NCBI GenBank assembly: GCA_965203165.1
Contig: OZ241849.1
Location: 1,680,563-1,744,562, forward strand
Direction: 5' to 3'
DNA length: 64,000 nucleotides
Source: Dehalococcoidia bacterium
Lineage (GTDB): Bacteria; Chloroflexota; Dehalococcoidia; Bin125
Part shown: in pieces, positions 9,077 through 18,399 of the stretch
Layout: every line of letters starts with the position of its first letter
How positions within the stretch are numbered: position 1 is the stretch's first letter
The notes under the pieces: generated by a model
The model's input: the letters and a program-made list of their open reading frames with translations, nothing else
Told to the model about the DNA's origin: nothing
The model's database searches: none
Translations under genes and position numbers: made by a program

Positions 9077-9319
9077 TCAGCCCTCCACGACATCGCCGGA
9101 GACCGGGTCGATCCGCACGCCCTTTTCGACGACCCAGGCAAGCCCGCGCTCGATCTCGTCGGCGTCGCCTTCGAGTTCGAGCACGACCCAGCCGAAATCC
9201 TGCTCGACAGCGGCCATGCGGATGTTGGTCACGACCTCGAACTCGCGGCCGAGCAGGTAGATGACCGGCTCGCGGACGGCGTCGCCCTCGAAGGTGAAGC
9301 GGACTCGGCGCGTGGCCAT
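9077..9319 (-). CDS. Stand-alone NIL-domain protein (MetN C-terminal-like small ferredoxin-fold domain)
   Basis: 80-aa product resembling the NIL domain. Located immediately downstream of a threonine-synthase-like gene. Confidence 0.5.
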   Translation of the reverse strand: MATRRVRFTFEGDAVREPVIYLLGREFEVVTNIRMAAVEQDFGWVVLELEGDADEIERGLAWVVEKGVRIDPVSGDVVEG

Positions 9320-9358: not shown

Positions 9359-10594
9359 TCAGCTCTGCCCGGCGGCGGCGAATGCGTCCTCAAACGATTG
9401 CAGCGTGCCCTCGACCGGAATCGGCCGAGTCACGTGCGGCTCGACGGCGTCGGCCGTTTTGAGGCCGCCGCCGGTGATGAAGGCGACGGTCGATTCGTCG
9501 GGGTCGATGATCTCGCGCTGGAGCGCCTGGCGCAGCCCGGCGATCGTCACGCCGCCGGCGGTCTCCGCGAAGACGCCCTCGCTCTCCGCGAGCAGCTGGA
9601 TGCCCTCGACGACTTCGGCGTCGCTGACCGAGGCCGCCCCGCCGTCGGTCGCCGCCATCGTCTTGAGCGCGTAGTAGCCGTCCGCCGGGTTGCCGATCGC
9701 CAGGCTCTTGGCGATCGTGTCCGGCTTGACCGGGCGGATGTTGGTCGTGCCGTTCTGCCAGGCGGTCGCGATCGGCGAGCAGCCCGTCGCCTGCGCGCCG
9801 ACCATCCGCACCTCCGACTCGTCGATCAGCCCGTAGCTCTGCAGCTCCTCGAAGCCCTTGTGGATCTTGGTGAAGAGCGAGCCGGAGGCCATCGGCGCAA
9901 CGCACTGCCGCGGCGCCCGCCAGCCCAACTGCTCCGCCACCTCAAACGCGAGCGTGCGCGAGCCCTCCGAGTAATAGGGCCGCACATTGATGTTGACGAA
10001 CGCCCAGTGCCGGTTGTCGGCCAGCTCCGAGCAGAGCCGGTTGACATCGTCGTAGGAGCCGTTCACCGCGACGATCGTGGGGTGATAGATCGCCGAGCCG
10101 AGCACTTTGCCGGCTTCGAGGTCGTGCGGGATGAAGACGACCGCCCGCATCCCGGCCCGCGCGGCGTGCGCCGAAACCGCGTTGGCCAGGTTGCCGGTCG
10201 AGGCGCACGCCAGCGTCTCGAAGCCCAGCTGACGCGCCCGGCTGCTGGCCACCGCGACCACCCGATCCTTGAACGACCAGGAGGGATTGCAGGTGTCGTT
10301 CTTGATCCAGAGCTCGCGCATCCCAAGCCGGCGGGCCAGATTGTCGGCGCGCAGCAGCGGCGTGCAGCCCACGTTGAGGTCGACGATGTAGTCGGCGTCC
10401 ACGGGCAGCATGTCCTTGTAGCGCCAGATCGAGCGCGGGCCGGCCTCGATCCGTTCGCGCGTCACGCGCGCCTGAATCGCGCCCCGGTCGTATTGCACTT
10501 CGAGCGGGCCGAAGCAGAAATCGCAGACGTTGATCGGGTCGAGCGGAAACTCGCGGCTGCACTCACGGCAGGCGAGGTGTGTGGCGTTGGTCAT
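9359..10594 (-). CDS. Threonine synthase family PLP enzyme with an N-terminal Zn-ribbon (ThrC or ThrC-like sulfhydrylase)
   Basis: CxxC...CxxC ribbon. PLP lysine motif SFKDR. Fold-type II PLP enzyme of about 410 aa. Confidence 0.8.
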   Translation of the reverse strand: MTNATHLACRECSREFPLDPINVCDFCFGPLEVQYDRGAIQARVTRERIEAGPRSIWRYKDMLPVDADYIVDLNVGCTPLLRADNLARRLGMRELWIKNDTCNPSWSFKDRVVAVASSRARQLGFETLACASTGNLANAVSAHAARAGMRAVVFIPHDLEAGKVLGSAIYHPTIVAVNGSYDDVNRLCSELADNRHWAFVNINVRPYYSEGSRTLAFEVAEQLGWRAPRQCVAPMASGSLFTKIHKGFEELQSYGLIDESEVRMVGAQATGCSPIATAWQNGTTNIRPVKPDTIAKSLAIGNPADGYYALKTMAATDGGAASVSDAEVVEGIQLLAESEGVFAETAGGVTIAGLRQALQREIIDPDESTVAFITGGGLKTADAVEPHVTRPIPVEGTLQSFEDAFAAAGQS

Positions 10595-10741
10595 CGTTGG
10601 GGAAGCTTTCGGGTAGGAGGCGAGAGGGCGTGCGCGCGGCCTGTTGGGGCAACCCCCAATCAGGCCTCCGGCATCGCCATGCGGCCCTCAGCCGCGGCAT
10701 CCGTCCCCGTGCAAGCGCGCGTGCTCATCGGGCGCAGCCTA

Positions 10742-11284
10742 TCACGCGACGGCCCAGGTGGGGGTTTCGATTTGGTGGATGTTGTTGGTGTTGACGATGG
10801 TTAGCAGTTCGGCGATTTGGAGCTGGTCGGGGGGGATGGCGCGGGAGGGGGCTAAGTCGGCCAGGGGGCGGAGGACGAATGCGCGCTCGCGGAGGCGGGG
10901 GTGGGGGATGTTGAGGCGGGGGTGGGCGACGGTTTGGGAGCCGTAGAGCAGGATGTCGATGTCGATGGCGCGCGGCCCCCAGCGGCGCTCGCTGCGGACG
11001 CGGCCGAGGCGGGCTTCGATGGCCTGCGTTTGGTCGAGCAGGTCGAGCGGCGCGAGGTTGGTTCGGCCGCGCAGGGCGGCGTTGAGGAAGGGCGGCTGGT
11101 CTGCGTCGCCCCAGGGGGGGGTTTCGTAGAGGGCGGAGACGCGGACGTCGGCGAGGATGGCGCGCAGCGCGGCGGCGGCGGCGCGCAGCGCGGCGCGGCG
11201 GTCGCCGAGATTCGCGCCGAGCCCGAGGAAGACATCGACGGTGGGGGCATCGGGCGCGGCGGGCAGATTGGGCATGTCAGGCAC
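10742..11284 (-). CDS. folK: 2-amino-4-hydroxy-6-hydroxymethyldihydropteridine pyrophosphokinase (HPPK)
   Basis: Motifs VFLGLGANLGD and RWGPRAIDIDIL. Confidence 0.85.
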   Translation of the reverse strand: MPDMPNLPAAPDAPTVDVFLGLGANLGDRRAALRAAAAALRAILADVRVSALYETPPWGDADQPPFLNAALRGRTNLAPLDLLDQTQAIEARLGRVRSERRWGPRAIDIDILLYGSQTVAHPRLNIPHPRLRERAFVLRPLADLAPSRAIPPDQLQIAELLTIVNTNNIHQIETPTWAVA

Positions 11285-12104: not shown

Positions 12105-12641
12105 TCAGAGCTCGCGCTCGCGGACGCGGGGGCGTCCGTCCTGCTGGATGGTTTCGAGCAGCAGGCGCCGCGGGGGCGCGTCTGTCTCGCCGATTTCGAG
12201 GGCGATTTCGCTGGGCACCACCGAGTCGGGCTCCGCGCCTTCGTCAATCCGCCAGGCGCGCACGCCGGGCTCGGCGTCCATCAGCGTGACGAGCACCCAG
12301 AACGGCCAGGGATTGGGCCCGCGGTGCAGGCGGGCGATGTTGAGGTCGGTCGGAGACGGCCGCGCTTCGCTGGCGACATGCGAGTGGTAGATCACGAGCA
12401 TGTCGCCGTCGCTGCGCTCAATCGCGTTGTAGAGGTGAAGCAGTTCCTGCGGGGGGATGTTAAAGCGCCAGGGGGAGGCTTCGGCGTTGGTGGTGCGGTA
12501 GAGGGTGAGCGCGCCGTCGGCGGCGCGCGCGATGATGCCGCAGCACTCGTTGGGCGCGTCCTGCTGCGCGTGCGCGATCATCTCGTCGACCAGCTGCTGC
12601 GGGAGCGTGAGCGTGGGTTGGTCAGTCATTAGGTCGGTCAT
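12105..12641 (-). CDS. JAMM/MPN+ (Mov34) metalloprotease, Mec+/CysO-hydrolase-like
   Basis: JAMM motif ECCGII...HSHVASEARPSPTDL. Start taken at MTDLMTDQ, with ATGA overlap to the upstream gene. The track's N-terminal extension was rejected as Arg/Pro-rich. Confidence 0.8.
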   Translation of the reverse strand: MTDLMTDQPTLTLPQQLVDEMIAHAQQDAPNECCGIIARAADGALTLYRTTNAEASPWRFNIPPQELLHLYNAIERSDGDMLVIYHSHVASEARPSPTDLNIARLHRGPNPWPFWVLVTLMDAEPGVRAWRIDEGAEPDSVVPSEIALEIGETDAPPRRLLLETIQQDGRPRVREREL

Positions 12642-13252
12642 CGGGCTGCCGCTGTCTGCGTCGGCTGGCTGTTGGACCAGAAGGTACGCGCTTCGTGGTG
12701 GGGGACCTCTTCGCCCCAGCTGTCCCAGCCGGGCGCGCGGCTGCGGGCGAAGAGCTCGATCTTGGACTGGTCGGGGAACATTCGCTCGATGCGGTCGCGG
12801 ACCTCGCGCGGTTTCTCGGAGTGCCGCCCGCGCGGCGCGCTGACCAGCTGGCGAACGTCGCGGCGGCCGCGCGGCTGGGGGATGCGCCCGCGTTTGAAGA
12901 CGAGGCAGAGCTCGCACTGCGAGAGCGTGTAGTGGCCGGGGTTGACGCGCTGCTTGTCCCAGATGAAAGCGACGGTGGCCCAGGCGAAGCCCCAGGCTTT
13001 GCCCAGCTCGATCGCCTGATCGAGGTGCGGCGAGGTGGCCCAGAGGAAGAGCACGCAGTCGTCGGCTGCGATCTCCTGCACGGGCAGTTGCGCCAGGTCC
13101 CGGCTGGCGACGGTGGAAAAGTGCCGCGCCGCGCCGCCGCTGTCGCCGCTGCCGGGCCCGGCGTGCTGCAGCTGGCCTTTGTAGTCCCAGGGCGGGTCGG
13201 CGTAGATCACGGCGTAGCGCCGCTGCGGGAGCGGGGGGAACTCGGTCAGCAT
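12638..13252 (-). CDS. MT-A70 family (DPPW) adenine methyltransferase
   Basis: Hallmark YADPPWDY motif and a 204-aa length typical of the bacterial MT-A70 clade. Confidence 0.75.
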   Translation of the reverse strand: MLTEFPPLPQRRYAVIYADPPWDYKGQLQHAGPGSGDSGGAARHFSTVASRDLAQLPVQEIAADDCVLFLWATSPHLDQAIELGKAWGFAWATVAFIWDKQRVNPGHYTLSQCELCLVFKRGRIPQPRGRRDVRQLVSAPRGRHSEKPREVRDRIERMFPDQSKIELFARSRAPGWDSWGEEVPHHEARTFWSNSQPTQTAAAR

Positions 13253-13644
13253 GTCGGCTCCGGGCGCCAGTCGCGCAGCGGGCCGTCGTCGTGGCAGGCG
13301 CCGGGCGTGAGCTGCATCTTGAGCAGCGTGCGGCTGAGCTGCGGCGCGATCAGGTGGTCGAGCCAGTGCTCCCGCTCGTCTTCGGGGACGATCTGCGCGA
13401 GGTCGGCGAAGCGAATGTGGATCTCGTGCTCGTCGGCGACGATGCCGAAGTCGAGCACCGGCTTGCCCGGCCGCAGCAGGCGGCCGATCGTGTCGCTGCG
13501 CAGGATGCGGTTGTCGGGGCGCTCGAGGTAGCGCTCAAGCACGCCGGCGCGGAAGCGCAGGGGCAGCGCGGCCGCGTCGCCGCTGGCGGCGGCGCGCGCG
13601 ACCGTGCGCCGCCAGACGGGGTCCGAGGGCGGGTCCGCGGGCAT
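13246..13644 (-). CDS. Hypothetical protein (132 aa) translationally coupled to the MT-A70 gene
   Basis: GC3-rich ORF with a 7-nt overlap to the downstream gene. No recognisable domain. Confidence 0.4.
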   Translation of the reverse strand: MPADPPSDPVWRRTVARAAASGDAAALPLRFRAGVLERYLERPDNRILRSDTIGRLLRPGKPVLDFGIVADEHEIHIRFADLAQIVPEDEREHWLDHLIAPQLSRTLLKMQLTPGACHDDGPLRDWRPEPTC

Positions 13645-13653
13645 CTCGCGCGC

Positions 13654-14499
13654 TCAGGCGGAGGGGTTGTCGATCGGCACGCCGACCACGCTGCCGTACT
13701 CGGTCCAGGAGCCGTCGTAGTTGGTCGAGTTCTCGATGCCCAGCAGGTAGCGCAGCGCGAACCAGCTGTGCGAGGAGCGCTCGCCGATGCGGCAGTAGGC
13801 GATCACCGGCTGGTCGCCGCTGATGCCCTTGCTCCCGTAAATCTCGCGCAGCTCGTCGGCCGGCTTGAAGGTGCCGTCCTCGGCGACGGCGCTGGCCCAG
13901 GGAATGTTGGACGCGCCGGGCACGTGGCCCTTGCGCTGCGCGGTTTCGGGCAGGCCGGGCGGGGCCATGATCACGCCGTTGAACTCGTCGGGCGAGCGCA
14001 CATCGACCAGCTGGCCGCCCACGCCGATGTGGGCGATCACGTCGGGCAGCTTGGCGCGGATCGACTCGTCGCGCTCGGCGACCGCGATCGAGCCCGCGGC
14101 CGGCGCGGGGGCGTCGGTGCTGGTCGGGCGGCTCTCGGCCAGCCACTTGACCCGCCCGCCGTCCATCAGCGCGGTGTTGGCCACGCCGTACATCTCGAGC
14201 ATCCAGAGCGCGTAGGCCGCGAACCAGTTGTTGTTGTCGCCGTAGAGCACGATCTGCGAGTCGTCGTTCGCGCCCGCGCCGCGCAGCAGCGTTTGCACGG
14301 TCTCGCGGCTGGCCACATCGCGCTGCACCTGATCCTGCAGCTGGCTGGTCCAGTCCCAGGCCACCGCGCCGGGCGGGTGGCCCTCGTCGTACGCGCCGGT
14401 GTCGACGTCGACTTCGATCAGGCAGACGGCGGGGTCGTCGAGGTGCTCGGCGACCCACTGCGTGCTGACCAGCTTTTCGGGGTGTGCGTATTCGGTCAT
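13654..14499 (-). CDS. sseA: Thiosulfate/3-mercaptopyruvate sulfurtransferase (tandem rhodanese domains)
   Basis: Two rhodanese domains and the active-site loop CRIGERSS. Confidence 0.85.
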   Translation of the reverse strand: MTEYAHPEKLVSTQWVAEHLDDPAVCLIEVDVDTGAYDEGHPPGAVAWDWTSQLQDQVQRDVASRETVQTLLRGAGANDDSQIVLYGDNNNWFAAYALWMLEMYGVANTALMDGGRVKWLAESRPTSTDAPAPAAGSIAVAERDESIRAKLPDVIAHIGVGGQLVDVRSPDEFNGVIMAPPGLPETAQRKGHVPGASNIPWASAVAEDGTFKPADELREIYGSKGISGDQPVIAYCRIGERSSHSWFALRYLLGIENSTNYDGSWTEYGSVVGVPIDNPSA

Positions 14500-14563
14500 C
14501 GTTCTCGTCCTTTCGCGGAGCGTGCAGAGTGCTCCGCAGTTGCGCGTGTTGGGGCGGCGGGAA

Positions 14564-15544
14564 TCACCACCAGATTTTGCCCTCGATCGTTTCGTCGCCG
14601 GCGATGTCCTCGTAGTCGCGCGCCCAGAGGCCGGTGGAGAGGTACTTCCAGCCGCCGTCGGCGAGCAGGACGACGATGTGGGCGGTGTCGGCGCGCTCGG
14701 CGATGCGCTGCGCGGCGCGGACCGCCGCGCCGCAGGAGATGCCGGCGAAGACGCCCTCCTCTTCGAGCAGCGATTTGGTCACGGCGAAGGAGGTGCGGCT
14801 GTCGATCACGATGCGTCCGTCGAGCACGGACTCGTCGAGCACCGGCGGGATGTAGCCCTCGTCGAGGCTGCGCAGCCCCTGCACGAGGTCGCCGGGGTGC
14901 GGCGCGGCGGCGACGACTTTGATCTCGGCGCGCTGTTCTTTGAGGTAGCGGCCCACGCCGGTCAGCGTGCCGCCGGTGCCCAGCCCGGCGACGAAGTGGG
15001 TGATCTCCGGGCAGTCGCGCAGGATTTCGGGGCCGGTCGTCTCGTAGTGCGCGTTGGGGTTGGCGGCGTTTTCGTATTGCATGGGCATGAAGACGCTGGG
15101 GTCTTCGGCGTAGAGCTGTTTGGCCATGCGCACCGCGCCGTTGCTGCCCTGCTCGCCGGGCGAGAGGATCACTTCCGCGCCGAAGAAGGTCAGCAGGTCG
15201 CGCCGCTCGACGCTCACGCTCTCGGGCATCACGCAGCGCACCGGATGGCCGCTGAGCCGGCCGATCATCGCGATCGCCAGCCCGGTGTTGCCGCTGGTCG
15301 GCTCAAGGATCGTTTGGCCGGGCTGCAGCGAGCCGTCCGCGTGGGCGGCATCGAGCATGGACCGGGCGATGCGGTCTTTGACCGAGCCGGTCGGGTTCTG
15401 GCCCTCGAGCTTGACCCAGATCGCGGCGTCGGGATTGGGCGAGAGGTTGTTGAGCCGGACCAGCGGCGTGTTGCCGATCGTCTCCAGCAGGGAGCCGAAG
15501 CGGGCGGGCGGCGCAGCCACGGCGGCAGGGGCGGCGGTGGTCAT
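14564..15544 (-). CDS. cysM: Cysteine synthase B-like (CysM, the CysO-thiocarboxylate-dependent type)
   Basis: PLP motif SVKDR, fold-type II. The start overlaps the CysO stop (ATGA). Confidence 0.85.
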   Translation of the reverse strand: MTTAAPAAVAAPPARFGSLLETIGNTPLVRLNNLSPNPDAAIWVKLEGQNPTGSVKDRIARSMLDAAHADGSLQPGQTILEPTSGNTGLAIAMIGRLSGHPVRCVMPESVSVERRDLLTFFGAEVILSPGEQGSNGAVRMAKQLYAEDPSVFMPMQYENAANPNAHYETTGPEILRDCPEITHFVAGLGTGGTLTGVGRYLKEQRAEIKVVAAAPHPGDLVQGLRSLDEGYIPPVLDESVLDGRIVIDSRTSFAVTKSLLEEEGVFAGISCGAAVRAAQRIAERADTAHIVVLLADGGWKYLSTGLWARDYEDIAGDETIEGKIWW

Positions 15545-15819
15545 CGGCGGCCGCCCGCCAGGGCCGGCAGAATCGCCAGCACGTCGCCGTCGCTCAGCGC
15601 GGTTTCGAGACCCTCCAGGAAGCGGATGTCTTCGTCGTTGAGGAAGATGTTGACGAAGCGGCGCAGTTCGCCCTGCTCGAGCAGTTGGTCGCCGATGCCG
15701 GGGTAGGCGCGTTCGAGCGAGGCGAGCAGGTCGCCGACGTTGGCCGATTCGAGTTGGACGGACTTCTGCCCGTCGGTGAACTTTTGCAGCATCGACGGGA
15801 CGCGGACTTCAACCGGCAT
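15541..15819 (-). CDS. cysO: MoaD/ThiS-family sulfur-carrier protein CysO with a C-terminal Gly-Gly-Arg-Arg tail
   Basis: 92-aa beta-grasp protein ending ...ILPALAGGRR. Sits directly upstream of cysM. Confidence 0.8.
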   Translation of the reverse strand: MPVEVRVPSMLQKFTDGQKSVQLESANVGDLLASLERAYPGIGDQLLEQGELRRFVNIFLNDEDIRFLEGLETALSDGDVLAILPALAGGRR

Positions 15820-15856: not shown

Positions 15857-16960
15857 CTAGCCGCCGGCCGCGGCTGCGGGGCCCTCGTGGAAGGGCGAGC
15901 CGCAGAATTCTTCGTAGTCGATCAGCTCGGTGACGCTGGGCGCGTCGCCGCAGAGCGGGCAGGCGGGGTCGCGGCGGATTTTGACGGTGCGGAAGTCCAT
16001 CGCCAGCGCGTCGTAGAGCAGCAGGCGGTTCTTGAGCGGCTCGCCCTGCTCCAGCAGCACCTTGATCGCCTCGGTGGCCTGGATCGCGCCGATCGTGCCC
16101 GGCAGCACCCCGAGCACCCCCGCCTCCGAGCAGGAGGGCACCATCCCCGGCGGCGGCGGGCTGGGGTAGAGGCAGCGGTAGCAGCCCTGCCCGGGGAAGA
16201 ACGTGGTGACCTGCCCCTCGAAGAGGAAGATGCTGCCGTCGACGAGGATCTTCTCGGCCAGGAACGCGGCGTCGTTGACCAGGTAGCGGGTGGCGAAGTT
16301 GTCCGCGCCGTTGATGATCACGTCGTACTGCGGGATGATCTCCATCGCGTTTTCGGAGGTCAGCGGCTGGGTGTGGGTCTGGACGACGATGTTGGGGTTG
16401 AGGTCGGCGATGCGGTCCTGCGCGGATTCGACTTTGGGGCGTCCGATGTCGCTGGTGCCGTGGATGATCTGGCGTTGGAGGTTGGAGCGGTCGACGACGT
16501 CGAAGTCGACGATGCCGAGGGTGCCGATGCCGGCGGCGGCGAGGTAGACGAGCACGGGCGAGCCGAGCCCGCCCGCGCCGACGGCGAGCACTTTGCCGTC
16601 GATCAGCTTGCGCTGCCCGAGGGGGCCGACCTGGTCCATGATCAGGTGGCGGGAGTAGCGCTCGACCATTTCGGGCGTCATGGCCGCGCCGCCGGCGAGC
16701 GCGGGAATCACGGCCACTTCATCGCCGTCGCTGACCAGGGTGTCGGTGCCCTGCAGTGCGCGAATCTCCTGGCTGTTGAGATAGACGTTGACGTGCTCGA
16801 GCAGCTCCTGCTCGCCGTCGAAGACCATTTCGCCGAAACCCGGGTAGCGCTGGTCGAGGTCGCGCAGCACGCCGTGGACATCGCTGCCGCCGGCCTCGAC
16901 GAAGGTGCGGTTGCCGGTGATCTTGCGGAAGGGGGTGGGAATGTAGACCTTGACGGGCAT
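15857..16960 (-). CDS. In-frame fusion of a MoaD/CysO-like ubiquitin-like domain (91 aa, ending ...IPALAGG) and a ThiF/MoeB-type E1 adenylyltransferase (274 aa) joined by Ala-Ala
   Basis: ATG at 16960 with GAAGGAA about 8 nt upstream. No stop codon between GG and the E1 Rossmann motif (LAVGAGGLGSP). E1 CxxC pairs are present and there is no rhodanese domain. The track's 887-aa ORF N-terminal extension was rejected. Confidence 0.75.
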   Translation of the reverse strand: MPVKVYIPTPFRKITGNRTFVEAGGSDVHGVLRDLDQRYPGFGEMVFDGEQELLEHVNVYLNSQEIRALQGTDTLVSDGDEVAVIPALAGGAAMTPEMVERYSRHLIMDQVGPLGQRKLIDGKVLAVGAGGLGSPVLVYLAAAGIGTLGIVDFDVVDRSNLQRQIIHGTSDIGRPKVESAQDRIADLNPNIVVQTHTQPLTSENAMEIIPQYDVIINGADNFATRYLVNDAAFLAEKILVDGSIFLFEGQVTTFFPGQGCYRCLYPSPPPPGMVPSCSEAGVLGVLPGTIGAIQATEAIKVLLEQGEPLKNRLLLYDALAMDFRTVKIRRDPACPLCGDAPSVTELIDYEEFCGSPFHEGPAAAAGG

Positions 16961-16983: not shown

Positions 16984-17919
16984 TCAGTCGTTGTCGAGCG
17001 GCATGCTGAGGTAGCGCTCGCCGGTGTCGCAGATCGTGGTGACGACGCGGCGGCCGGGGCCGAGCTGGCGGGCGATTTCGACGGCGGCGTGGACATTCGC
17101 GCCGGAGGAGATGCCGGCGAGCACGCCTTCCTCGCGGGTCAGCCGGCTGGTCATCGCGATCGCGTCCTCGTCGCTCACGCCGATCACCTCGTCGTAGATC
17201 TCGCGGTTCAGGACGCCGGGCACAAACGACGCGCCGATGCCCTGGATTTGGTGGACGGCGAAGCGTCCGCCCTGCAGGACGGGCGAGCGCAGCGGTTCGA
17301 CGGCGACGATTCGCAGGTCGGGCTTGCGCTCGCGGAGCCACTCGCCGACGCCCGTGATCGTACCGCCCGTGCCCACGCCGGTCACGAACGCGTCGAGTTC
17401 GCCGTCCAGCGCGGCCCAGATTTCGGGCGCGGTGCTGCGGCGGTGGATTTCCGGGTTGGAACGGTTGAGGAACTGCTGGGGCATGAAGTAGCCCGGTTCG
17501 GCCGCCAGCTCTTCGGCGGCGAAGACGGCCCCGGTCATGCCCTCGATCGCGGGCGTGAGCAGGACTTCCGCGCCGAAGCGCTCCAGCAGCCGGCGGCGTT
17601 CGCGGCTCATGTCCTCGGGCATCGTCAGGATCAGCCGGTAGCCCTTGACGGCGCAGACCAGCGCCAGGCCGACGCCGGTGTTGCCGGAGGTGGGCTCGAC
17701 GATCGCGTCGCCGGGCTGCAGCGCGCCGCTGCACTCGGCGTCCTCGATCATCGCGCGGGCGATGCGGTCTTTGACCGAGCCGCCGGGGTTGAGCGATTCG
17801 AGCTTGGCGACGAGCTCGGCGGCGGCGGGCGGCGCGACCCGGCTGAGCCGCAGCATCGGCGTCGCGCCGATCAGGTCGAGCACGGTTTCGGCGACTGGAG
17901 GCCGCTGGATGGTCGTCAC
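16984..17919 (-). CDS. cysK: Cysteine synthase A (O-acetylserine sulfhydrylase)
   Basis: PLP motif SVKDR and the TSGNTG loop, 311 aa. Confidence 0.9.
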   Translation of the reverse strand: MTTIQRPPVAETVLDLIGATPMLRLSRVAPPAAAELVAKLESLNPGGSVKDRIARAMIEDAECSGALQPGDAIVEPTSGNTGVGLALVCAVKGYRLILTMPEDMSRERRRLLERFGAEVLLTPAIEGMTGAVFAAEELAAEPGYFMPQQFLNRSNPEIHRRSTAPEIWAALDGELDAFVTGVGTGGTITGVGEWLRERKPDLRIVAVEPLRSPVLQGGRFAVHQIQGIGASFVPGVLNREIYDEVIGVSDEDAIAMTSRLTREEGVLAGISSGANVHAAVEIARQLGPGRRVVTTICDTGERYLSMPLDND

Positions 17920-17964: not shown

Positions 17965-18399
17965 TCAGATGTGGTAGCGGCCGCCGGCAGCGGCCTCCTG
18001 GCGGGCGAGGTCTTCGACGGTGCGCCCGCCGAGCACCTGCAGAATGGCCGCCTGCACATCCGCCCAGAGGCGGACCTGTGCGGCGGCCCCCGTACAGCGC
18101 TCGACGGGCGCTTCGTCGAGGCAGGCGGCGGGCACGATCGGGCCTTCGAGCGCCTGCACGACGGCATCGAGCCGGATCGCGTCGGCGGGCAGCGCCAGCT
18201 GGTGTCCGCCCTGCGCGCCGCGCGTCGAGCGGATGAAGCCGGCCGTGCGCAGGCGTCCCAGCACCTGCCCCACGAGCGAGGCGGGAATCGCCTGGCGCAG
18301 CGCGATCTCGCTGCTGGGGATCGGCCCCGCGCCGGCCTGCTGGGCCAAATCCACGAGCGCGCGAATGCCGTAATCGCTCTTGCTGGACAGCTTCATCAT
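17965..18399 (-). CDS. Rrf2-family transcriptional regulator (CymR/IscR-like)
   Basis: N-terminal wHTH (SSKSDYGIRALVDLA). Diverges from cysH. Confidence 0.85.
   Translation of the reverse strand: MMKLSSKSDYGIRALVDLAQQAGAGPIPSSEIALRQAIPASLVGQVLGRLRTAGFIRSTRGAQGGHQLALPADAIRLDAVVQALEGPIVPAACLDEAPVERCTGAAAQVRLWADVQAAILQVLGGRTVEDLARQEAAAGGRYHI

Follow-up and report, generated by a model that had tools for sequence, protein, structure and literature searches.

Does a ubiquitin-like sulfur carrier that extends two residues beyond its Gly-Gly end depend on a protease before it can act, and is that protease the JAMM enzyme encoded in the same gene run? The question is raised by a cysteine-biosynthesis locus within 64,000 nucleotides of Dehalococcoidia DNA (the window, meaning the whole stretch analysed). 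The answer we consider probable, with some reserve, is that Chloroflexota (here Dehalococcoidia) have their own form of the M. tuberculosis thiocarboxylate-dependent cysteine pathway, in which the JAMM protease would cut after GG in CysO-Cys, in the tailed CysO and in the fusion of a ubiquitin-like (Ubl) domain with an E1 enzyme. The identities of the genes, the tail, the gene overlap, the fusion and the conservation of all these are read from sequence data, while every cleavage event, the sulfur donor and the substrate of CysM are inferred. The features are, in order of transcription:

17965..18399, minus strand: Rrf2-family regulator, first of the gene run (Pfam Rrf2 4.8e-31)
16984..17919, minus strand: cysK, classical O-acetylserine sulfhydrylase, 311 aa (NCBIfam cysK equivalog 421.8 bits, cut-off 350.95)
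15857..16960, minus strand: Ubl-E1 fusion, 367 aa (Pfam ThiS and ThiF in one open reading frame)
16693..16688, minus strand: G90-G91 of the fused ThiS/MoaD domain (residues 1-91, ending PALAGG, then an AA linker)
16681..15857, minus strand: MoeB-type E1 part from M94, two CxxC motifs, no rhodanese domain (NCBIfam MoeB 3e-118)
15541..15819, minus strand: cysO, 92-aa ThiS/MoaD-fold sulfur carrier with the C-terminus PALAGG-RR (sequence read; Pfam ThiS 7e-16)
15555..15550, 15549..15544 and 15543..15541, minus strand: G89-G90, the R91-R92 tail and the stop of cysO (sequence read)
15541..15544, minus strand: ATGA overlap of cysO stop and cysM start, translational coupling (sequence read)
14564..15544, minus strand: cysM, PLP enzyme, 326 aa, O-phosphoserine sulfhydrylase as in M. 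tuberculosis by type (Pfam PALP)
13654..14499, minus strand: stand-alone two-domain rhodanese, 281 aa, CRIGERS active-site loop (Pfam Rhodanese 4.9e-28, two stretches)
13246..13644, minus strand: 132-aa protein of unknown function, invariant C-x-DDG motif
12638..13252, minus strand: MT-A70 / type II DNA N6-adenine methyltransferase, DPPW motif (Pfam MT-A70 5.8e-24)
12105..12641, minus strand: JAMM/MPN+ metalloprotease, Mec+-like, 178 aa (Pfam Prok-JAB 2.4e-21)
12386..12345, minus strand: JAMM motif H86-x-H88-x7-S96-x2-D99, with E32, aligned to solved JAMMs

From cysO to the JAMM gene all genes share one strand, no gap exceeds 64 nt, and the coding strand between the two has no terminator-like site. 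Chloroflexota loci conserve the order Rrf2-cysK-UblE1-cysO-cysM-(rhod-unk132)-JAMM, with the Rrf2 gene at the head, and in rearranged clusters (L033, L043) the JAMM gene still adjoins cysM. In all loci with both genes, the 132-aa protein is encoded between rhodanese and JAMM, and the stand-alone rhodanese is its constant partner. The MT-A70 gene, with further matches to phrog_359 (1.7e-66) and PADLOC MTase_II (4e-61), occurs in the cluster only in a close clade (L001-L024), at variable positions, and probably lies outside the sulfur system. The insertion of such an unrelated gene directly ahead of the JAMM gene is an observation against the proposed pathway.

The carrier tail and the cysO-cysM junction

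Read on the minus strand, the 3' end of cysO is ctg gcg ggc ggc cgc cga tga, that is L-A-G-G-R-R-stop, and the cysM ATG (15544..15542) and the cysO stop have the four bases ATGA in common, so that the two-residue extension past Gly-Gly and the overlap of stop and start, both claimed by the original prediction, can be read directly from the DNA. The overlap dictates that the last tail codon is NNA (CGA for R, CAA for Q), as it is in every relative that uses ATGA; in relatives the junction stands at the same place as ATGA, TGATG or TAATG. The best solved relatives in a PDB search, M. tuberculosis CysO (3DWG_C, 2.4e-22) and the A. orientalis carrier (4N6E_B), both end with GG, and the alignment with the former reaches as far as the GG.

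An identical CysO, RR included, is encoded in the independent MAG OZ241913.1 (locus L001), and a CysO cluster of 97% identity carries CR. A tail follows PALAGG in 28/28 protein matches (at least 78% identity to CysO) and in 28/28 genome loci (at least 67% identity). These relatives share an unchanging PALAGG but differ in the tail (RR, CR, AR, ER, DR, AQ, SR, AA, SS, C and others). Tail lengths run from 1 to 14 residues, with many different first residues; Ala occupies P1' in 42 of 82 CysO tails. In some relatives a lone Cys is the whole tail, which makes the translation product identical to the CysO-Cys intermediate of the pathway. As judged from these alignments, the tail is conserved as a feature and not as a sequence, which fits the expectation for a discarded peptide.

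The same comparisons bear on whether RR is an artefact of sequencing, assembly or gene calling and the real CysO ends with GG. The window is metagenome-derived and 70% GC, and nothing was found in support of an artefact; the independent MAG has the same RR although it differs elsewhere (its MT-A70 is only 76% identical), every close relative is tailed, and the junction retains the cysM start codon throughout. The misassembly that the original prediction had allowed for fails on these comparative data, which refute an artefactual origin and leave it practically no probability.

In the ThiS/MoaD/CysO mechanism a free GG end is required for adenylation, and the predicted need to expose GG beforehand agrees with this established chemistry. 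CysO would be made as a precursor, CysO-GG-RR, and a second carrier as the N-terminal domain of the E1, either of which could be adenylated only after the peptide bond past GG had been cut. The tail itself would hold no information. It would simply result from the overlap of cysO with cysM and be tolerated, since the pathway cannot do without a post-GG hydrolase in any case.

The Ubl-E1 fusion

The fusion is widespread in Chloroflexota, with the Ubl-E1 architecture found in 119/120 best homologues. P-A-[LIVM]-A-G-G of the fused Ubl is kept in 114/114 parsable homologues, while the linker that follows is variable and spans 3-10 residues between GG and the E1 motif. Ala is P1' in 83/114 fusions, and thus the commonest P1' residue in fusions and CysO tails alike. 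Residues 89-94 of the junction have a pLDDT below 50 in the AF2 model, which predicts a flexible junction. In distant relatives Leu replaces the Met after the linker; the E1 of those genomes is therefore without an internal Met start and made only as a fusion.

Might the fused Ubl instead stay on as a regulatory or docking domain of the E1, with the stand-alone CysO as sole carrier? Iyer et al. 2006 concluded so for Ubl-ThiF fusions beside a stand-alone ThiS (PMC1779556), and here a stand-alone carrier gene begins 37 nt downstream of the fusion. However, GG is strictly conserved next to residues that drift both in length and in sequence, a pattern difficult to account for if the GG had no use, and split versions of Ubl and E1 exist (L038 and L079), which are likewise tailed. 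Permanent retention of the domain is accordingly regarded as quite improbable, and release of the fused carrier by cleavage is preferred.

The E1 part scores 394.7 bits against NCBIfam MoeB and 387 bits against MoeZ, each below its cut-off. Its two CxxC motifs are invariant and a rhodanese domain is lacking, and it is not an E1 of the MoeZ type, which has a C-terminal rhodanese domain fused and no CxxC pairs; activation accordingly departs from that in mycobacteria, a point against the proposed pathway. The separate rhodanese, which matches NCBIfam 3-mercaptopyruvate sulfurtransferase at 5.5e-39 (under cut-off), is presumed to be the persulfide donor in place of the rhodanese domain of MoeZ.

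The JAMM protease in a proposed cysteine pathway

The JAMM peptidase is co-encoded with cysO as predicted, the Prok-JAB gene lying 2.9 kb downstream on the same strand in the same gap-free gene run. The two genes are not adjacent, as JAMM comes four genes downstream, past cysM, rhodanese, the 132-aa gene and MT-A70. A 270-aa open reading frame from 12917 was rejected as the JAMM gene; it is an over-extension, and the real ATG overlaps the upstream MT-A70 stop via ATGA. The E...HxHx7Sx2D motif is intact (E32, H86, H88, S96 and D99 all present) and aligned with those of the PDB matches 2KKS (3.8e-13) and PfJAMM1 5LDA (1.2e-6), and the protein is 32-37% identical to JAMM proteins encoded in actinobacterial mec-cysO-cysM loci. 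That this is a single JAMM holds within the 64-kb window, which encodes one JAMM and one E1 in all, and the claim is limited to that window.

CysM finds its best PDB match in M. tuberculosis CysM (3DKI/3DWG, 2.8e-95; next family 6e-73), which points to O-phosphoserine as its substrate, while CysK has CysK enzymes as its best PDB matches. Given a CysM of this type, the primary task expected of the JAMM is hydrolysis of CysO-Cys, the reaction of Mec+. The original prediction had set the mycobacterial release of cysteine from the CysO-cysteine adduct apart from the present case; the role is correctly described but, with CysM orthologous to the M. tuberculosis enzyme, most likely applies here too. 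Such a role already explains the presence of the JAMM, so that its being encoded with cysO does not argue specifically for trimming. The prediction that the one JAMM both matures CysO and cleaves the fusion is thus supported in part. By analogy, tail trimming and fusion cutting would be natural extensions of the Mec+-type role, and the operon JAMM is the likely trimmer of both the CysO tail and the fused carrier.

The JAMM could, on the other hand, be a Mec+-type CysO-cysteine hydrolase only, with tail and junction cut by another peptidase, a general carboxypeptidase or endopeptidase encoded elsewhere. The presence of a JAMM within 10 kb does not track tailed CysO (28/38 vs 6/11, Fisher p=0.28) and is weakly associated with the fusion (29/37 vs 5/12, p=0.03, not corrected for phylogeny). 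Eight of the 37 full-length fusion loci, for example L035, L039, L054, L060, L061 and L072, are without a JAMM in this range, seven of which also have a tailed CysO; their JAMM may be located elsewhere in the genome. The protease cutting mycobacterial MoaX after GG, moreover, has been reported as unidentified (PMC4326299). Tails of 1 to 14 residues with many starting residues are nevertheless a poor fit to a sequence-specific carboxypeptidase, only JAMMs have been shown to do such trimming on sulfur carriers, and the bond cut by Mec+ in CysO-Cys is chemically the same GG-X amide. We assign a separate trimming peptidase a small though appreciable probability.

A ubiquitin-like protein, an E1 and a JAMM could also constitute a protein-conjugation system, SAMP/TtuB-like or antiviral Bil/CBASS-like, with the JAMM as deconjugase. 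Among the top NCBIfam matches are indeed SAMP1, the SAMP-activating E1 UbaA and desampylase, but all score under curated cut-offs (57.9/60, 367.9/450 and 55.5/130, respectively), and the weak PADLOC E1-E2 matches (1e-16) cover the E1 domain only, compared with 3e-118 for MoeB. With neither an E2 domain nor an E2 gene present, and in a context confined to the metabolism of cysteine and sulfur, with an Rrf2 regulator in charge, conjugation is very unlikely, and as the sole function it is contradicted by CysM and CysK.

In the favoured cysteine pathway, the JAMM would have three substrates: the CysO-Cys amide adduct that arises each time CysM turns over (as with Mec+), newly made CysO with its two-residue tail, and the Ubl-E1 fusion, cut at GG|AA. 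The MoeB-type E1 would adenylate the freed GG carboxylate, persulfide sulfur from the separate rhodanese would convert it to a thiocarboxylate, and CysM would consume this CysO thiocarboxylate together with O-phosphoserine. A bolder proposal, which we consider unlikely, is a protease-gated pathway with the 132-aa protein as an undescribed sulfur-relay or adaptor protein, filling in for the rhodanese domain that MoeZ has and this E1 lacks. With E1 production confined to the Ubl fusion and every carrier molecule starting out tailed, JAMM activity may then switch on the whole thiocarboxylate route.

Comparison with known systems

The combination of tailed carrier, fusion and JAMM is a well-precedented arrangement and not a new one, and the current understanding of sulfur-carrier systems is unchanged by it. 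It is a clean illustration, across a whole phylum, that the C-terminus of a ubiquitin-like sulfur carrier comes under relaxed selection where a post-Gly-Gly hydrolase is obligatory, such that tails and even enzyme fusions can accumulate, comparable to the accumulation of tails and fusions in the ubiquitin precursors of eukaryotes. Of practical use is the annotation of cysteine biosynthesis in uncultured Dehalococcoidia, and a conserved uncharacterised 132-aa protein is flagged in the cluster.

The nearest counterpart is the CysO/CysM/Mec+/MoeZR pathway of M. tuberculosis, in which Mec+ hydrolyses CysO-Cys (Burns 2005, summarised in PMC3227635). The carrier and CysM are nearest to M. tuberculosis CysO and O-phosphoserine sulfhydrylase, cysO is directly upstream of cysM and a JAMM gene lies within the cluster. 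In contrast to M. tuberculosis CysO, which ends at GG, the present carrier has an RR tail; the E1, encoded inside the cluster, is MoeB-type with CxxC, without a rhodanese domain and with an N-terminal Ubl; rhodanese is a separate gene; and JAMM comes last in order, not first. Genes for CysK, Rrf2, the 132-aa protein and the DNA methyltransferase go beyond the M. tuberculosis set.

Residues past GG together with a full-motif JAMM in the same cluster are shared with QbsE/QbsD, CxnE/CxnF, HcyS/HcyD and MetO/Mec. HcyS(-Ala)/HcyD was reportedly described by Krishnamoorthy & Begley in 2011 as a case of tailed carrier plus JAMM. QbsD trims CF off QbsE, and CxnF has been proposed to trim a decapeptide (SEAARAEESR) off CxnE (PMC5925218), while the GapMind preprint counts Mec among the requirements for maturing MetO. 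Trimming first and adenylation second would be the logic common to these systems and the present one. They make siderophores, antibiotics or homocysteine, whereas the present system is a primary cysteine pathway, in which the protease would also have to act in every catalytic round to set the product free.

Linear carrier fusions cut by a JAMM are represented by MoaD-MoaE of D. radiodurans, which DRJAMM cuts after Gly (PMC8832034), M. tuberculosis MoaX and the SAMP fusions processed by HvJAMM1. As in these, the partner enzyme comes straight after a MoaD-like domain whose GG is internal, but the partner here is the E1 and not MoaE; cleavage past GG is required for function in those systems and, by likeness, may be so here. 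The literature searched yielded no experimental case of a Ubl-E1 fusion that is cleaved.

Cleavage of fused ThiS/MoaD by JAB proteases was predicted already in 2006 by Iyer, Burroughs & Aravind (PMC1779556), whose Table 1 row 4c, which includes Chloroflexus, assembles the same parts (ThiS/MoaD, E1, JAB and cysteine synthase), and who also described a Ubl at the E1 N-terminus beside a stand-alone carrier. The E1 of row 4c, however, has a rhodanese domain fused and not a Ubl, and the Ubl-ThiF fusions of Iyer 2006 come from thiamine operons and were thought to differ in role from the carrier.

The gene run and its JAMM protease

Between 18399 and 10742 every gene is read from the minus strand, neighbours being separated by -8 to +64 nt, and a simple scan of the coding strand gave no terminator-like sites between them. 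The promoter and terminator scan found no promoter-like sites and terminator matches at chance level only, and no riboswitch came up when 8.5-19.5 kb was searched with Rfam, where the sole match was a sub-threshold miRNA.

Genes of the run in order, with coordinates where the text needs them
Minus strand: Rrf2 regulator
Minus strand: CysK, classical (NCBIfam cysK equivalog, 421.8 bits, above cut-off)
15857..16960, minus strand: ThiS-ThiF (Ubl-E1) fusion, 367 aa
Minus strand: CysO, 92 aa, nearest to M. tuberculosis CysO (3DWG_C) and A. orientalis CysO (4N6E_B)
Minus strand: CysM, 326 aa, judged by sequence clearly of the M. tuberculosis O-phosphoserine sulfhydrylase type (3DKI/3DWG at 2.8e-95 versus 6e-73 for the next group)
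Minus strand: rhodanese, two domains, stand-alone, CRIGERS loop
13246..13644, minus strand: 132-aa protein, no family match
12638..13252, minus strand: MT-A70 DNA N6-adenine methyltransferase
12641..12105, minus strand: JAMM metalloprotease, 178 aa
Minus strand: folP
Minus strand: folK

The original prediction had a JAMM peptidase co-encoded with CysO, and the gene indeed lies in the same run, is the sole JAMM gene of the 64-kb window and retains E32, H86, H88, S96 and D99 on alignment to 2KKS and PfJAMM1 (5LDA). A 270-aa ORF for this gene was rejected as an over-extension, since the ATG at 12641 shares an ATGA with the stop codon of the gene before it. The order Rrf2-cysK-UblE1-cysO-cysM-(rhodanese-132 aa)-JAMM-folP-folK repeats across Chloroflexota, and where the cluster is broken up, in the relatives' loci L033 and L043, JAMM still adjoins cysM like in actinobacterial mec-cysO-cysM loci, an arrangement that fits a primary role of the Mec+ type, the mycobacterial CysO-Cys hydrolase.

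JAMM and E1 occur once each in the window and Ubl domains twice, with 41% identity between the two. A SAMP-like or antiviral conjugation system built from these parts is very unlikely, as an E2 is missing, every equivalog match for it is below cut-off and the gene context is purely metabolic; a defence-system reading likewise failed on the scores from PADLOC, PHROGs and NCBIfam.

The conserved 132-aa protein, encoded between rhodanese and JAMM, is the least understood element of the cluster: it carries an invariant C-x-DDG motif, has just 65 representatives in a set of 1.84 billion proteins and obtained neither a family assignment nor a structural match. Its apparent fusion to JAMM in the locus L075 was dismissed, as two separate ORFs are present there. 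The MT-A70 gene, phage-type or type II with a DPPW motif, sits inside the cysteine operon and overlaps the 132-aa gene upstream and JAMM downstream (ATGA). It is confined to the close clade with a variable insertion site: the Dehalococcoidia MAG L001 (OZ241913.1) has a 560-bp spacer and a 76%-identical copy, L017 a duplication and L024 a 3-kb insert.

Beyond folK, a thrC-like gene follows within 150 nt in the window (~10600-10750), while L001 has none within 4.7 kb after folK, which points to a synteny break between the window and this near-identical MAG. The gene (9359-10594, minus strand) encodes a 'threonine synthase' with an N-terminal zinc ribbon, 63-68% identical to certain Chloroflexota thrC products whose genes precede a third ThiS-like carrier, a pair that resembles MetM/MetO of the route from O-phosphohomoserine to homocysteine; in the window an 80-aa NIL-domain ORF of the MetN C-terminal type (9077-9319, minus strand) follows instead of the carrier. 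Possibly the thrC-like protein makes homocysteine, with CysO or the fused Ubl as a borrowed carrier. The GapMind preprint, citing Hasebe 2024, lists Mec as necessary to mature MetO in the new route to homocysteine.

The CysO tail at the cysO-cysM junction

Direct reading of the minus strand (15600..15541) gives ctg gcg ggc ggc cgc cga tga, which translates as L-A-G-G-R-R-stop, and the four bases ATGA at 15544..15541 are common to cysO and cysM, the cysM ATG consisting of the last base of CGA and the TG of the stop; both the extended carrier end and the overlap had been noted with the original prediction and are borne out. While the CysO proteins of M. tuberculosis (3DWG_C) and A. orientalis (4N6E_B) stop exactly at Gly-Gly, the window protein continues with RR. 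That this tail is an artefact has a probability close to nil: in a scan with one genome per species, CysO of L001 is 100% identical, RR included, and the protein cluster at 97% identity has a CR end, which excludes the misassembly that would have undone the prediction. As the other L001 genes are 97-100% identical to those of the window and MT-A70 only 76%, L001 is closely related but independent.

Of the 120 best CysO homologues, those with 78% identity or more, 28 in all, without exception have a tail behind an invariant PALAGG, mostly of exactly two residues (CR, AR, ER, DR, AA, AS, RH, SS, AG, SA etc.). Below about 77% identity most homologues end with GG; in total, 38 of the 120 are without a tail. 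In the separate set of genome loci, tails of 1-14 residues are found in 28 of 28 loci with at least 67% identity. The CysO body changes much more slowly than the tail, and the tail sequence is thus not under protein-level selection. Across relatives the cysO/cysM junction is kept as ATGA, TGATG or TAATG; the tail-final R (CGA) and Q (CAA) recur because the ATGA overlap demands an NNA last codon. In several relatives the encoded tail is a single Cys, so that the primary CysO product and the pathway's CysO-Cys adduct are the same molecule. Nine-residue tails with a second GG in the loci L008, L014, L019 and L020 (DHGYVGGAA, DHPVVGGHR, DLSVAGGSS and ALRVGGGSS) suggest a partly duplicated C-terminal motif.

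The Ubl-E1 fusion

The E1 part of the fusion is MoeB-like (3e-118) with two invariant CxxC motifs and without a rhodanese domain. Of the 120 best homologues, 119 share the Ubl-E1 architecture, annotated already by JGI as adenylyltransferase plus converting-factor small subunit. P-A-[LIVM]-A-G-G is kept in the fused Ubl of all 114 parsable homologues, in which the linker from GG to the conserved E1 motif has 3-10 residues of variable sequence; more distant genome loci have up to about 25 extra residues after the GG. That the fused Ubl is never released is distinctly unlikely, as this invariant GG speaks against it. Ala occupies P1' in 83 of the 114 fusions and 42 of 82 CysO tails. After the linker, close relatives have Met and distant ones Leu, which makes a separate E1 by internal initiation impossible in those distant genomes. 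In L038 and L079 Ubl and E1 are split, and the free Ubl bears its own tail. In the AF2 model both domains are folded and residues 89-94 (AGGAAM) have pLDDT <50, which is compatible with an exposed cleavage site but a weak hint of one.

The ...AAAAGG-stop end of the E1 (15857-15865, minus strand) was rejected as a conserved second GG terminus upon comparison of the loci L001-L029, as relatives end with HEN, AAGS or AAGA; common to some close relatives only, it is probably a coincidence.

Co-occurrence of JAMM with the tail and with the fusion was scored within 10 kb at 49 loci flanked by 6 kb or more on either side. JAMM is found at 28 of 38 tailed and 6 of 11 untailed CysO loci (Fisher p=0.28), and at 29 of 37 fusion loci versus 5 of 12 without fusion (p=0.03); both tests are weak and uncorrected for phylogeny. 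Eight fusion loci, among them L061 (OY969711.1), lack a JAMM in this range. Trimming by another peptidase is considered unlikely.

Proposed processing and known systems

Carriers of the ThiS/MoaD/CysO type can be adenylated only when the carboxylate of their last Gly is free (PMC3227635, PMC4326299); consequently, the RR tail and the junction of the fusion both have to be cut. In mycobacteria CysM joins O-phosphoserine and CysO thiocarboxylate, and Mec+ hydrolyses the CysO-Cys amide (PMC3227635), which chemically is CysO with a one-residue tail. On the simplest reading, the operon JAMM would cut after GG irrespective of what follows and would thereby release cysteine each cycle, trim newly made CysO and free the fused Ubl and E1, all cleavage steps that we infer. 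The stand-alone rhodanese would provide the persulfide, as does the own domain of MoeZ in mycobacteria. The tail would have arisen by neutral drift where two translationally coupled genes meet, tolerated since the hydrolase is there in any case.

An extended carrier with a trimming JAMM, HcyS-Ala/HcyD, was reportedly described by Krishnamoorthy and Begley in 2011. Trimming has been documented or proposed for QbsE-CF/QbsD and CxnE-decapeptide/CxnF (PMC5925218). The original prediction that JAMM matures CysO and cuts the fusion is reasonable and not new in kind. The parts list of ThiS/MoaD, E1, JAB and cysteine synthase, Chloroflexus included, was published in 2006, with the Ubl on the N-terminus of ThiF described beside a stand-alone carrier and JAB cleavage of fused ThiS/MoaD predicted to free the C-terminus (PMC1779556). 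The literature searched yielded no experimental report of a cleaved Ubl-E1 fusion; cutting of a linear fusion by JAMM has been shown for D. radiodurans MoaD-MoaE (PMC8832034), and M. tuberculosis MoaX requires cleavage after GG (PMC4326299). Set beside these systems, the locus represents a CysO/CysM/JAMM pathway of mycobacterial type in Dehalococcoidia, in which the carrier is made as a precursor and a Ubl is fused to the E1.
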